From contig JAFWYK010000010.1 in NCBI GenBank assembly GCA_017517685.1, positions 66,499-130,498 on the forward strand: 64,000 bases of DNA, read 5' to 3'. The position numbers were made by a program, and so were the translations under genes. Each line of letters begins with the position of its first letter. Position 1 is the first letter of the stretch. Positions 5,662 through 51,735 of this stretch are shown here, in pieces. Source of the DNA: Clostridia bacterium. Lineage in GTDB: Bacteria > Bacillota > Clostridia > TANB77 > CAG-508. The notes under the pieces were generated by a model. The model saw nothing but the letters and a program-made list of their open reading frames with translations, made no database searches and was not told the origin of the DNA.

Positions 5662-5736
5662 TGGTGACCCCTACGGGAATCGAACCCATGATTCCACCTT
5701 GAGAGGGTGGCGTCTTAGCCGCTTGACCAAGGGGCC
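5662..5736 (-). tRNA. tRNA-Glu (anticodon CUC)
   Basis: 75-nt cloverleaf folded by hand on the minus strand. Acceptor GGCCCCT/AGGGGTC, anticodon arm CCACC-CTCTCAA-GGTGG, T arm ATGGG-TTCGATT-CCCGT, encoded CCA end. Confidence 0.85.
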
Positions 5737-10906: not shown

Positions 10907-11407
10907 ATGGAAAATAAAAATAGTTCAAATTCAAAAAGAGAAGATTATATCTCTTGGGACGAATATTTCATGGGAGTAGCAATGCTTTCAGCGGAAAGAA
11001 GTAAAGATCCAAATACAGATGTAGGAGCTTGTATTGTAAGTGATGATAATAGAATATTATCTATGGGATATAATGGAGCACCTAGAGGACTACATGATGA
11101 TAAAATGCATTGGCAAAGAAATGGTTCTTTTACAGAAACAAAATATGCATATGTATGTCATGCAGAACTTAATGCTATATTAAATTATAGAGGAGATCTA
11201 TCTGGATCAAAAATATATGTAAAATTATTTCCATGTAACGAATGTGCTAAAGCAATTATTCAGTCTGGTATTAAAGAAGTTATTTATAAAGAAGATAAAT
11301 ATGCTACATCAGATAATGTAATTGTGTCAAAAGCAATGTTTGATTCATGTGGTGTTAAATATACAGAATATAAATCTACAGGTAAAAAAATTACTTTAGA
11401 GTTATAA
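10907..11407 (+). CDS. comEB: deoxycytidylate (dCMP) deaminase, ComEB-like
   Basis: Zinc-deaminase motifs HAELNAI and PCNECAKAIIQSGIKEV. 166 aa. Confidence 0.85.
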   Translation: MENKNSSNSKREDYISWDEYFMGVAMLSAERSKDPNTDVGACIVSDDNRILSMGYNGAPRGLHDDKMHWQRNGSFTETKYAYVCHAELNAILNYRGDLSGSKIYVKLFPCNECAKAIIQSGIKEVIYKEDKYATSDNVIVSKAMFDSCGVKYTEYKSTGKKITLEL

Positions 11408-11431
11408 AAATAGTTTAAATAACTAGCAAAT

Positions 11432-11460
11432 TTGATATTTTATGTAAAATGTGGTATAAT
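11432..11460 (+). promoter_or_regulatory. sigma-A-type promoter with extended -10
   Basis: TTGATA-17 nt-TATAAT with TGg immediately upstream of the -10. 52 nt upstream of ATG 11512. Confidence 0.6.
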
Positions 11461-11511
11461 TAGTATGTAGGTATATTGAAGATTTTACAATATGATGAGG
11501 AGGTAATACCT

Positions 11512-11934
11512 ATGTACAAGATTGACACTTTTATGGAATACTGGATGATCGTCGAAGACAGACTCGTTGTTACAAATGATGTAACTCTCAAACAGATCAA
11601 GGCTATGGTTAAGGAGATGGAGTCCATCGACGCGGAGTACACTGTTGTTTTCGAAGTTGACGCTTTCGCAAGCTATCGTAAGATGCCTGAGTGCATTGCA
11701 AATCACATCAAGAATATGAATGTTGGTGACACCTGTGGTTTCGGCGATGTCGAAATTCGTAAGGTTTCTAACCATCTTTGTGTTGGCGTGATGCTCAATG
11801 TTCTCTATCAGTACAACGATCTCAAGCTCGTGGATGCACATGATCAGTTCGATGATGAGCTCACCCAGCTCGTTGAAGCAGCAGAGGAACATCCTCAGAC
11901 CGCAAAACTTCTGGAACTCCAGCTTTGCGGTTAA
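11512..11934 (+). CDS. orphan hypothetical protein on a GC-rich island
   Basis: 140 aa from ATG 11512, 8 nt after SD gaggagg. 29/60 GC on line 11581-11640 versus 10/60 on 11401-11460. Lys codons 7 AAG : 2 AAA, the opposite of the host. No family recognised. Confidence 0.65.
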   Translation: MYKIDTFMEYWMIVEDRLVVTNDVTLKQIKAMVKEMESIDAEYTVVFEVDAFASYRKMPECIANHIKNMNVGDTCGFGDVEIRKVSNHLCVGVMLNVLYQYNDLKLVDAHDQFDDELTQLVEAAEEHPQTAKLLELQLCG

Positions 11935-12008
11935 GTGAAATCAGTAACACAAGAAGCGGCGCACCACTAACATGGCGCGTCGTTTTCCGTTTTATAAAGG
12001 AGAAGAAA

Positions 12009-12632
12009 ATGAAAATTATTTATGGTACAACTAATAAAGCAAAATTGGAAGCAATGCATGGAATTATAAAATCTTATGGATTTGATGCAGAGCTTTATAC
12101 ATTAAAAGATATAGGATTTACAGATGAAATAATAGAAGATGGTGAAAGTTTTGAAGAAAATTCATTAATTAAAGCTAGAGCAATTGAAGCTTTTTGCAAA
12201 AAAGAAGGAATAGAAGATAAAATTATTCTTACTGATGATGCAGGATTATGCGTTGATTATTTAGGTGGTGCTCCTGGAATATATACAGGAAGATATGCAG
12301 GAGATCATGCACCACAAATCGATAATATAAATAAGCTTTTAACAAATATGAAAGGATGTACAAAACTTGAAGATAGATCTTGTAAGTTAGTTTGTGTATT
12401 AACTGCAATATTAACTGATGGAGAAGTATATGTTGCAAGGGGAGAGTGTACAGGGACAATAGCTTTTGAACATGGGAAATTAGGTGGACTAACTTTCGGA
12501 CCAGTATTTATTCCAAAAGGTTTTGATAAGCCAATGGGCGATATGGAGGAAGAAGAATATATTGCAGTACATAATCACAGAGATTTAGCAATGCAAGAAT
12601 TAATGGCAAAATTCAAAGCTTTAGGATATTAA
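12009..12632 (+). CDS. rdgB: non-canonical purine NTP pyrophosphatase (RdgB/HAM1 family)
   Basis: MKIIYGTTNKAKLEAM start and the ...DDAGLCVDYLGGAPGIYTGRYAG... motif. ORF-track frame trimmed to ATG 12009 after SD aaaggag. Confidence 0.85.
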   Translation: MKIIYGTTNKAKLEAMHGIIKSYGFDAELYTLKDIGFTDEIIEDGESFEENSLIKARAIEAFCKKEGIEDKIILTDDAGLCVDYLGGAPGIYTGRYAGDHAPQIDNINKLLTNMKGCTKLEDRSCKLVCVLTAILTDGEVYVARGECTGTIAFEHGKLGGLTFGPVFIPKGFDKPMGDMEEEEYIAVHNHRDLAMQELMAKFKALGY

Positions 12633-14588: not shown

Positions 14589-15455
14589 ATGAAAAAGCAG
14601 CAGCAGATGTACCGTGATTGTCCCTACGAAGTATACTTTGAGAACACCTTCTGTGGAGACTGTCGGAACTGCCCCAACTACAGTAATTGCGTTCTGATGC
14701 GTTATCGCGCAAGTCAAAATGAGAAAAAACGTGCAAAGACCAAGAACGTTGTTCGGAATAGAATCATCGCCTTGTGTGCTGTCATTGCCCTGGTAATGAC
14801 CAGTATTACCGTCATGGCGAGTAATGCTATTAACACTCCTTCTGAGTATTCAGTAAGTGATGTTAACACAAGAAATAGTGACGTTGTGATTACAACTCTT
14901 CGCTATGATGACCCGACAATTGTTGTGACTCCTGAAGTCAACACTGAATCCGTTACGGAGCCTGTTTCTGAGGAAACGCTTCCGATCGTGATTGTGCCTG
15001 AAATCTCTGCATATGGCCCTGGCAAACTTTACTATTACGACTTGAACGAAAGTGAAAAGTTGTACTTAGCTAAAATGGTGTACAGGGAAGCTCGTGGTGA
15101 ATCGTTTGAAGGCAAAGTAGCTGTTGTAGCCGTCGCGCTGAACAGATATTTTTCCAATGATCGCCGTTTTGATCGCCGTTCCATCTACGCAATCGTTACT
15201 CAGTCTGGTCAGTTTGCTGACATCTCCGGTGTCACCCAGGGTATGTTGGATAGCATTCCTGAATGCATGGAAGCCGTCGAGGCAGCCTGCAAGGGATGGG
15301 ATCCTACTCGTGTGACTTTCGAGGACGGTGCTTTGTTCTTCTATTCTCCGAAGAATATGTCTGAGGAGGCATTGTTGAGCAGATCTGGCGTGGAAACTCT
15401 TACTATTGGAAACCACAATTTCCATGTAGATTTCAACCCTGATTACGCACCGTAA
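14589..15455 (+). CDS. SleB/CwlJ-type cell-wall hydrolase domain protein with Cys-rich N-terminus and TM anchor (GC-rich island)
   Basis: C-terminal YLAKMVYREARGESFEGKVAVVAVALNR ... GQFA matches the Hydrolase_2 (SleB) family as I remember it. N-terminal C-x10-C-x2-C-x2-C-x5-C, then a TM helix. 29/60 GC on 15121-15180. Confidence 0.7.
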   Translation: MKKQQQMYRDCPYEVYFENTFCGDCRNCPNYSNCVLMRYRASQNEKKRAKTKNVVRNRIIALCAVIALVMTSITVMASNAINTPSEYSVSDVNTRNSDVVITTLRYDDPTIVVTPEVNTESVTEPVSEETLPIVIVPEISAYGPGKLYYYDLNESEKLYLAKMVYREARGESFEGKVAVVAVALNRYFSNDRRFDRRSIYAIVTQSGQFADISGVTQGMLDSIPECMEAVEAACKGWDPTRVTFEDGALFFYSPKNMSEEALLSRSGVETLTIGNHNFHVDFNPDYAP

Positions 15456-51152: not shown

Positions 51153-51542
51153 TTAGGGAAGATCGTTCGGATCCAAATCTTCGGCAGAATTGGCCTCGAC
51201 ACCAGGTCCGTTAGCAGGTCCCTTTTCGGGAGCTACGCCAGTAGTGTCGGTGGCATCATCTTCAGATTCTTCTTCGTCGAGTGCGACGAGAACGCCTTCG
51301 GGCAGCTTGATGGTGATGCAGTTGCCTGCGTCTTCCACGATGAAACCATCGTCTTTGAGTTCATCCAGCACATCAACGGGAACGTTGTGGGTAACAGAAA
51401 GCTCGAAGGCTTCGGGACCCTTATACTGGTTGAGCAGATCCTGGTAAAGATCGTTCATGGAAGAAGTGATGTTGCTCATGTGGTAATTGTGACGCTTAGT
51501 GAAAAGCTTGTCAGCCATGTTTTGTGCATTGAAAGTAGACAT
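51153..51542 (-). CDS. orphan hypothetical acidic protein on a GC-rich island
   Basis: 129 aa. SD aaggagg 10 nt upstream of ATG 51542. 32/60 GC on 51241-51300. Lys codons 5 AAG : 1 AAA. C-terminal D/E/P/G-rich tail. Chosen over two overlapping plus-strand ORFs that lack an SD and are low-complexity. Confidence 0.6.
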   Translation of the reverse strand: MSTFNAQNMADKLFTKRHNYHMSNITSSMNDLYQDLLNQYKGPEAFELSVTHNVPVDVLDELKDDGFIVEDAGNCITIKLPEGVLVALDEEESEDDATDTTGVAPEKGPANGPGVEANSAEDLDPNDLP

Positions 51543-51706: not shown

Positions 51707-51735
51707 ATTATATCATAATTTACATAAAATAGCAA
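51707..51735 (-). promoter_or_regulatory. sigma-A-type promoter driving the GC-rich ORF
   Basis: Minus strand reads TTGCTA-17 nt-TATAAT with TGa extension. Predicts a ~155-nt 5' UTR containing hairpins aggat-ttt-atcct and gaagtgc...gcacttc. Confidence 0.55.

Follow-up and report, generated by a model that had tools for sequence, protein, structure and literature searches.

A GC-rich orphan gene between comEB and rdgB of an AT-rich Clostridia genome is probably a long-resident, self-sufficient unit with maintained codon composition

The 64,000-nucleotide stretch analyzed here (the window) spans positions 66,499 to 130,498 of the forward strand of contig JAFWYK010000010.1 in assembly GCA_017517685.1 of a Clostridia bacterium. 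The source assembly (G000; 1.63 Mb, 12 contigs, 28.0% GC, 90% complete) has metagenome-assembled genomes of Candidatus Scatovivens, Clostridia, as its nearest named relatives. Within the window, comEB, which codes for a dCMP deaminase (10907-11407), and rdgB, of the Ham1 family (12009-12632), are separated by 601 nt that harbor, on the plus strand, an open reading frame (ORF) of 140 codons and 140 amino acids, starting at the ATG at 11512 (not 11513) and ending at 11934, hereafter the orphan. Its GC content is 0.444, and 0.51 at third codon positions (GC3), versus 0.25-0.30 in the flanks and 0.23 in the 104 nt immediately upstream. In 200-nt windows the GC content rises from 0.23-0.29 to 0.43-0.48 across 11500-11999 and returns to 0.27, and a value of 0.44 lies at about the 99th percentile of the genome (mean 0.280, standard deviation 0.048 in 300-nt windows). 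The orphan employs AAG in 7 and AAA in 2 of its Lys codons, CAG six times and CAA never, CTC in 9 of 13 Leu codons, GTT in 11 and GTC in 2 of 16 Val codons, GGT three times and GGC twice for Gly, and 2 CGT plus 1 AGA for Arg, with CGG absent. A first-pass annotation, made from the letters alone, had described a GC-rich orphan ORF at this place, and composition, ratios of non-synonymous to synonymous divergence (dN/dS) and independent contigs bear it out; its counts of 10/60 GC at 11401-11460, 29/60 at 11581-11640 and 14/60 at 12061-12120, as well as the 7:2 Lys ratio, are reproduced exactly, and of the codons that it listed as preferred, AAG, CAG and CTC stand, while GTC is only a minor choice.

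The orphan is a genuine gene. Its dN/dS against orthologs is 0.1-0.3 (131-140 codons), which indicates that the ORF is coding. Moreover, a protein with 99% identity is encoded on 20 contigs that were assembled independently from different samples, each time between comEB and rdgB. The gene is fixed and nearly invariant in nine independent metagenome contigs of the species, in which the density of single-nucleotide polymorphisms (SNPs) is 0.7% in the orphan and 0.4-1.0% in the flanks. The same placement on independent contigs and the flank-like SNP density rule out a chimeric assembly; the SNPs inside the ORF among these nine contigs amount to three only, too few for a test of the direction of polymorphism.

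Upstream of the orphan lies a near-consensus sigma-A-type promoter on the plus strand (11432-11460), TTGATA-17-TATAAT with a TGn extension, whose -35 box at 11432 and -10 box at 11460 match the consensus at 11 of 12 positions, and whose spacer holds the conserved word TTTTATGTAAAAT. From the position of the -10 box, transcription would start near 11467, originating a conserved, AT-rich 5' leader of approximately 45 nt (11467-11511, plus strand) that contains the Shine-Dalgarno (SD) sequence GAGGAGG at 11497-11503, 8 nt upstream of the ATG; the promoter with its TG extension and the strong SD had already been read correctly in the first-pass annotation. The promoter is invariant or nearly so in six orthologous loci, including that of G016, in which the cassette lies downstream of rdgB, and the mean column identity of the promoter/leader alignment is 84%. 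A perfect 8-nt inverted repeat (unstranded), TGTAAAAT at 11443-11450 and ATTTTACA at 11482-11489, flanks the -10 box and the probable start site; both of its arms fall within alignment blocks that are invariant among orthologs, and they may constitute a candidate operator pair. The leader word GATTTTAC (11482-11489) is also complementary to GTGAAATC (11935-11942), immediately downstream of the stop codon, where orthologs read GTAAAATC, and both the word and its complement are conserved in close orthologs; this could reflect pairing of the 5' and 3' ends of the mRNA, a third copy of the DNA site, or a coincidence in AT-rich sequence. A 12-nt pairing between the 5' end of the leader and the start-codon region was rejected as a sequestering stem, having a z-score of -0.25 against shuffled sequences and being absent in G016.

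The 3' end of the unit carries two hairpins on the plus strand. The nested hairpin at 11899-11931 (stem ACCGCAAA/TTTGCGGT, inner CTGGA/TCCAG), which covers the last codons and had been reported before, is real (-16.2 kcal/mol, z -3.3); at its position the orthologs hold only weaker, different hairpins, as judged by eye, and its function is therefore doubtful. Further downstream, a GC hairpin (11953-11986) followed by UUUUCCGUUUU forms a terminator-like element (11953-11993; -19.3 kcal/mol, z -3.4) that occurs in all close orthologs with differing sequence, 5 of its 11 pairs being preserved by compensatory two-sided changes. A simple terminator scan misses it, the stem being bulged and the U-tract interrupted, and the earlier statement that no clear U-tract terminator precedes rdgB needs revision. 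The element is probably a partial intrinsic terminator or a 3' stabilizer. Since its U-tract is interrupted and no promoter-like site was found in the stretch from the hairpin to rdgB, some transcription is likely to continue into rdgB; thus, of the co-transcription proposed earlier, the lack of a separating element does not stand, while read-through is still plausible. The edges of the insert are marked by an unstranded pair of inverted 8-mers, TTATAAAA on the left (11402-11409), which holds the comEB stop codon at 11405-11407, and TTTTATAA on the right (11990-11997), just upstream of the rdgB SD and its ATG at 12009; composed of A and T only, they are quite likely a chance match. No Rfam match was found within the cassette.

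The orphan protein (140 amino acids, isoelectric point 4.5) begins with an alpha/beta domain of approximately 95 residues, continues with an acidic linker predicted at low confidence and closes with a C-terminal tip ending in LELQLCG. AlphaFold2, run on a 21-sequence alignment, predicts three strands, a helix, a strand, two helices and three strands, with a per-residue confidence (pLDDT) of about 90 for residues 11-95 and low confidence in the tail. The core of the family alignment likewise covers about 95 residues, with nearly invariant E35, P59, G72, S86 and C90, and is followed by a variable acidic linker and, in many members, by a C-terminal tip of the form L-x-L-C-[GCN]. No significant family or profile match was found in Pfam, NCBIfam, PHROGs, PADLOC or PDB sequences, nor any significant fold match by Foldseek (best E 0.085 and template-modelling score of at most 0.37 in PDB; best E 0.039 in BFVD). 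A word-indexed search of 5.8 billion proteins returned 4 clusters, a profile of 25 diverse members returned 25 clusters, and an exhaustive search of 1.84 billion cluster representatives with a hidden Markov model returned 21 family members; among 400 genomes of the GTDB family, the profile hits 6 genomes in 3 genera. The family was found neither in 50,697 phage records nor in 72,556 plasmids nor in IMG/VR, and all 14 of the contexts examined are AT-rich. The family is thus narrow and resident in AT-rich hosts.

Some distant members show peculiar arrangements. In L041 (1860-3000), two tandem paralogs of 103 and 97 amino acids each have a promoter and a leader, and a third promoter copy, TTGACTATTTATGTAAATTATAGTATAAT, is followed by no ORF and is maybe a remnant or a small RNA. 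In L014 (G005; 471-1848), a 26%-identical family member sits in a patch of 35-42% GC and adjoins a 290-amino-acid orphan that seems, from the likeness of the N-termini judged by eye, related to two GC-rich genes of the source genome (G000 C7 53947-54684 and C7 74058-74867).

Comparison of the locus among relatives indicates that the cassette is an addition, as comEB and rdgB are adjacent in some of them. In G051 the two genes are 17 nt apart, an empty site with a single TTATAAA followed by a 17-nt spacer, and in G005 they are 66 nt apart, so that the adjacency check suggested in the first-pass annotation comes out in favor of an insertion; in G020 the gap is filled by an AT-rich membrane-protein gene. 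The order comEB-orphan-rdgB is found in the window, L044 and L010, while a 274-amino-acid membrane-protein gene follows the orphan and precedes rdgB in G046 and L043; L011 reads comEB-orphan-membrane gene, and L009 reads comEB-orphan, its contig ending there. Lastly, G016 has the order comEB-rdgB-orphan-51-amino-acid cassette-recN. The second unit in this genome (L013, 1985-2300) stands directly downstream of the orphan terminator as a mini-cassette with the same promoter type, TTGTTATTTTATGTAAAGTGTGTTATAAT, and its own terminator, and codes for a 51-amino-acid Cys-rich peptide (...CNFGYKNCTACKKKDCKIRQYVE). At each orphan locus the conserved unit extends from just upstream of the -35 box through the T-tract of the terminator. 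No mobility genes were found within 5 kb, and the only mobility-like signature is the 8-nt A/T inverted repeat at the edges. Genus-wide, comEB itself is patchy, with a match at E<=1e-20 in 12 of 61 sampled genomes.

The age of the insertion can be read from the flanks. A comEB+rdgB tree, ((G046,L043),(win,L044),(G016,(G051,(G020,G005)))), has support of 0.97-1.0 on the relevant splits; with the most distant pair taken as root, a single gain at the base of G016 and the two other clades, plus one local shift of the cassette, suffices to explain the distribution, and the order of the orphan gene tree agrees with it. Outside its own species the gene is present in 2 of 24 sampled species of the genus, and it is therefore accessory in the genus and fixed in a subclade. 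At least five related species have orthologs that share the promoter, the leader and the terminator. Between the window and these relatives, synonymous divergence (dS, by the Nei-Gojobori NG86 method, on short sequences with large errors and with few taxa for rate and polarity tests) is 0.46-0.80 for comEB, rdgB and recN, so the gene predates several speciations. The protein itself changes rapidly: amino-acid identity to the relatives is 86-96% for comEB, rdgB and recN versus 41-66% for the orphan, dN is 0.02-0.11 versus 0.31-0.60, and dS of the orphan is at least 1.1 and not computable versus G016. The orphan protein thus diverges 5-10 times faster than the flanking proteins, yet under purifying selection.

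The composition of the orphan has been retained over this time and is deviant in a specific manner. GC3 is 0.50-0.59 in all six orthologs, versus 0.08-0.13 in the neighbors. At four-fold degenerate sites, the frequencies of A, T, G and C are 0.52, 0.42, 0.04 and 0.02 in bulk genes versus 0.14, 0.44, 0.16 and 0.26 in the pooled orthologs; the share of G in two-fold purine-ending codons rises from 0.10 to 0.64, and that of C in two-fold pyrimidine-ending codons from 0.15 to 0.56. In other words, A-ending codons are replaced and T-ending ones are not, and the shift differs from a symmetric enrichment in GC. For single codons, the shares in the orphan and in the bulk are 80% versus 0.13 for AAG, 86% versus 0.03 for CAG and 64% versus 0.00 for CTC, and ACC has a share of 0.01 in the bulk. 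The A deficit tracks the coding strand, including that of a minus-strand gene at 51153 in the same window. A deficit of A alone on the coding strand cannot be produced by a strand-symmetric process, such as mutation bias or GC-biased gene conversion. Among distant family members, GC3 is 0.45-0.50 in L031 and L032 and 0.33-0.40 in L033-L035, L038, L041 and L047, and in every case it exceeds that of the neighbors (0.06-0.21).

The assembly contains tRNA genes for Lys-CUU, Glu-CUC, Thr-GGU, Thr-CGU, Gly-GCC, Arg-ACG and Arg-CCU, while no Gln-CUG, Leu-GAG or Leu-CAG tRNA was found in this 90%-complete assembly. The genes detected for tRNAs with C or G at the first anticodon position, number 34 (Lys-CUU, Glu-CUC, Thr-CGU, Arg-CCU, Leu-CAA, Thr-GGU), are all solitary and have plain consensus promoters; one of them, tRNA-Glu(CUC), lies within the window (5662-5736, minus strand; G000 C10 72160-72234).

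The orphan belongs to a genome-wide class. When 1,526 non-overlapping ORFs are scored for GC3, the distribution has its mode at 0.13 and a tail above 0.28; approximately 60 ORFs of at least 90 amino acids (about 4-5% of ORFs) reach a GC3 of at least 0.33, occur as single genes or pairs across all contigs and share the codon signature. With respect to the bulk, the GC-rich set has GC1 of 0.49 versus 0.41, GC2 of 0.345 versus 0.293 and GC3 of 0.44 versus 0.13 at the three codon positions; amino-acid usage is shifted as well, less strongly (the summed share of Phe, Tyr, Met, Ile, Asn and Lys, FYMINK, is 0.315 versus 0.371), and most members have no Pfam domain. CGG makes up 0.11 of Arg codons in the GC-rich set versus 0.00 in the bulk and in ribosomal-protein genes of G000. 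The likeness in codon usage that had been pointed out between the orphan and the ORFs at 14589 and 51153(-) is sound, as all three have A at 0.10-0.16 and T at 0.44-0.48 of four-fold sites. The former (14589-15455, plus strand) codes for a 288-amino-acid protein with a Cys-rich N-terminus, one transmembrane helix and a C-terminal cell-wall hydrolase domain (PF07486, E 4e-16), and is also found downstream of recN in G046 and G016, at 40-47% GC and with 48-66% identity (87-89% for recN). The latter (51153-51542, minus strand) codes for a 129-amino-acid protein with an isoelectric point of 4.05, a disordered acidic/Pro-Gly tail and no family match; homology between this acidic protein and the orphan family was considered and rejected, as none was found.

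The class also shares a promoter feature. A word, TTATGTAAA, of the general form TTA(TG/CA)TAAA, stands a few bases upstream of TRnTATAAT at the orphan, precedes distant homologs in other genera and is found before approximately 15 other GC-rich genes of the source genome. It occurs upstream of 9 of 85 GC-rich versus 4 of 1,368 AT-rich ORFs, an enrichment of about 36-fold, and the genes so preceded include that at 51153(-), one for a GNAT acetyltransferase, one for a radical-SAM/SPASM enzyme whose partner is a Cys-rich membrane protein, and a number of orphans; the promoter described in the first-pass annotation as host-type belongs instead to this conserved class. At 51153(-) the promoter (51707-51735, minus strand) has the same word (TTGCTATTTTATGTAAATTATGATATAAT) and is followed by a leader of about 165 nt. 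Genome-wide, 147 near-perfect TTGnnn-17-TATAAT sites with an extended -10 element were counted, 41 of which precede DNA of at least 37% GC; the word is present in 12 of these 41 versus 3 of 89 sites before AT-rich DNA (Fisher p 6e-5). Moreover, a near-consensus promoter with an extended -10 element lies within 300 nt upstream of 43% of GC-rich versus 7% of AT-rich ORFs (odds ratio 9.7, p 7e-14), an excess that in part reflects the monocistronic nature of the GC-rich genes. Other recurrent spacer types, TTGATTTT(A/T)AGC... and TTGAAAAA(C/G)..., seem present in G000. As a strict palindromic operator the spacer word was rejected, its TG and CA variants standing at differing distances from the -10 box by eye, and a looser operator role is hypothetical. 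Co-regulation with the C34/G34 tRNAs through the word was rejected too, as the tRNA promoters are plain TTGACA-17-TATAAT without it.

Taken as a whole, these data are best accounted for, in our judgment with somewhat more confidence than doubt, by a self-sufficient resident unit that was added once and whose composition is held by selection on the coding strand. The unit would be monocistronic, comprising promoter, leader, SD, ORF and hairpin terminator, and would encode a small acidic cytosolic protein of an undescribed, narrow family. It would have been gained once in the comEB-rdgB-recN neighborhood at the base of a Candidatus Scatovivens subclade and inherited since, moving locally across rdgB once, and its G/C-ending, A-avoiding usage would be kept by coding-strand selection at the level of the mRNA or of decoding rather than being a fading foreign trace. 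Specifically, transcription would start at the near-consensus promoter, where the inverted 8-mer in spacer and leader may bind a repressor; the message would be decoded mainly by tRNAs with G, C or inosine at position 34 (Lys-CUU, Glu-CUC, Thr-GGU, Gly-GCC, Arg-ACG) and not by the U34 tRNAs that serve the bulk; and the hairpin would end or stabilize the transcript, some read-through probably feeding rdgB. The weakest step concerns the protein, which might be a stand-alone binding or inhibitor protein engaged in a fast-evolving interaction, a guess that its acidic character, its fast divergence and a disordered acidic tail bearing a conserved hydrophobic/Cys tip have prompted.

Several observations weigh against this account. 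The dS of the orphan does not keep a clock-like proportion to that of the flanks, as the orphan has 0.11 and comEB 0.25 between G046 and L009, while other pairs have 0.8-1.1 in the orphan versus 0.3-0.5 in the flanks (between L009 and L010, the orphan has 0.55-0.95 and comEB 0.32), which leaves some room for allele exchange between species. When third-position changes are polarized, the deep triplets are balanced, with 4-8 changes from G/C to A/T (S>W) and 5-8 in the opposite direction (W>S), whereas the shallowest ones are skewed, with 12-14 S>W versus 2 W>S; the pattern fits a mutation pressure opposed by selection, and equally a decay that is in part still under way. Not every member of the wider family maintains its composition, since GC3 is only mildly enriched in L045 (0.29) and L046 (0.19). 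The expected loss of GC3 given below comes from a rough, back-of-the-envelope estimate with two rates and not from a fitted non-stationary model. Lastly, as regards the role of the protein, no conserved partner gene was found, and the neighbors differ in each genus examined.

A recent or repeated acquisition from a moderately GC-rich donor, e.g., gut Clostridia of 40-50% GC, in which the gene was inserted downstream of a host-like promoter and is still to be ameliorated, is unlikely, although several of the observations above speak for it: the GC-rich set is atypical at all three codon positions, G051 has an empty site, the gene is patchy in the genus in the one sample of 24 other species, and the position of the cassette differs in G016. 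To these may be added the combination of AAG, CAG, CTC, GTT, GGT and CGT, which we take to resemble a Lachnospiraceae-type usage. Conversely, the search of 1.84 billion representatives and of the phage, plasmid and viral collections yielded no donor homolog, and 14 of 14 contexts lie in AT-rich hosts, which counters the repeated acquisition from one moderately GC-rich donor lineage favored in the first-pass annotation. That reading is further opposed by the promoter, leader and terminator, which are orthologous across at least five species, by a gene tree in the order of the flank tree, and by a flank dS of 0.5-0.8 that predates several speciations.

An ancient import from a very GC-rich donor, still decaying neutrally, with tips alike in GC3 for being of the same age, is very unlikely. 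The tips are indeed equidistant in time from the insertion, so that equal GC3 alone is no proof of equilibrium, and both the S>W excess on shallow branches and the nearly host-like composition of some distant members agree with decay. However, as only about 12% of host third positions are G or C, a G/C site mutates to A/T several-fold faster than the average host synonymous change, and by rough estimate, at the depth of the split between the window and G016 (flank dS about 0.75, host GC3 about 0.12), a neutral insert would have shed roughly one half to two thirds of its excess in GC3. A neutral insert would then need an ancestral GC3 near or above 0.9. Moreover, a neutral decay toward the host values of 0.52 for A and 0.42 for T should let A rise no more slowly than T, while the orthologs have A at 0.14 and T at 0.44, which argues against plain amelioration, and the changes on deep branches are balanced.

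Still less probable is that the high GC content of the cassette is sustained by GC-biased gene conversion at a recombination hot spot. Recombining bacterial genes are known to have a higher GC3 (Lassalle et al. 2015, PMC4450053), the cassette shares with them a local rise of GC3 within an AT-biased genome, and an orphan dS of about twice the flank dS that is not clock-like could reflect allele exchange. Unlike the effect of gene conversion, though, the shift in the orphan is much greater (GC3 +0.38), stays within the ORF and affects A and T unequally. A strand-symmetric process should deplete A and T alike, while only A is depleted; the shift begins at the start codon, with the leader remaining at 23% GC, and the within-species diversity of the cassette equals that of the flanks.

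Lastly, the signature as a native translational bias of highly expressed genes, which the first-pass annotation had named as what would refute it, or as an assembly chimera is already refuted, since 30 ribosomal-protein and elongation-factor genes, despite sharing with the orphan the preference for TTC, TAC and ATC, have the opposite usage (GC3 0.07-0.17; AAA 95%, CAA 99%, GAA 91%, TTA 78%; AAG 5%, CAG 1%, CTC 0%) with C in two-fold pyrimidine codons as their only G/C preference, and the cassette occupies the same place on the 20 independently assembled contigs.

The proposed resident, selectively maintained unit resembles several known systems in part. Like phage morons (Cumby, Davidson & Maxwell 2012, PMC3594210), it forms a transcription unit of its own, equipped with promoter and terminator, here on sequence evidence alone, and it sits between genes that are adjacent in relatives, with a GC content of 0.44 versus 0.25-0.30 in the flanks. 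Unlike them, it is flanked by the chromosomal housekeeping genes comEB, rdgB and recN and not by phage or prophage genes, it has no relatives in the 50,697 phage records, IMG/VR or PHROGs, and it has been inherited through several speciations with its composition held, which is not a sign of recent transfer. With the horizontally acquired genomic islets or ORFans that are said to undergo amelioration, a concept attributed to Lawrence and Ochman, the orphan shares an atypical composition and a patchy distribution; unlike islets, it comes with no donor, mobility genes or tRNA anchor found, and its composition is unrelaxed despite a flank dS of 0.5-0.8, with a strand-specific avoidance of A-ending codons that leaves T untouched. 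Unlike typical integron cassettes, it has its own promoter, and inspection of its 3' region revealed no attC-like imperfect palindrome of 60-140 nt, the genome not having been searched for intI.

A functional analogy may be drawn with the bldA/TTA regulon of Streptomyces, in which a minority of genes contain a codon that is otherwise almost unused. Here too, a minority of genes is written in codons that are rare genome-wide, and their translation could depend on a distinct subset of tRNAs. The orphan differs in being recoded over its whole coding sequence and not at one rare codon, and no dedicated, regulated tRNA was found: the tRNA promoters have no cassette word, and Gln-CUG and Leu-GAG are absent from the assembly. 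A bldA-like codon dialect is accordingly offered as a hypothesis only. In its full form, which we hold to be decidedly unlikely, the orphan would be one of approximately 60 monocistronic units with near-consensus promoters, some of them sharing the spacer word TTATGTAAA, and A-avoiding codons, selected to shift decoding from U34 to G34, C34 and I34 tRNAs. If this were true, the set would still be translated when the NNA-dependent translation of the bulk is throttled, as under U34 hypomodification, anticodon-nuclease attack during phage infection, or starvation, and the Streptomyces bldA/TTA system would have its mirror image, at the scale of whole genes, in this reduced and very AT-rich Clostridium of the gut.

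The analysis adds the shift of the cassette across rdgB, the single-gain tree and the four-fold A/T asymmetry as an argument against GC-biased gene conversion, together with the cross-cassette promoter word and its enrichment, the conserved terminator and the negative outcome for tRNA co-regulation. The family consists of small, fast-evolving proteins that have not been described before, and their domain, predicted with confidence, has no match among known folds. Atypical composition routinely serves to class genes as horizontally acquired; for the orphan and for the approximately 60 genes like it, this classification would be wrong on timing and probably on cause, as the deviation is old, confined to the coding strand, and set against the mutational pull that has taken the rest of the genome to a GC3 of 0.13. 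These cassettes are therefore a natural test bed for why selection would favor G/C-ending codons in bacteria, and for whether one genome can run two codon dialects with differing regulatory meaning.

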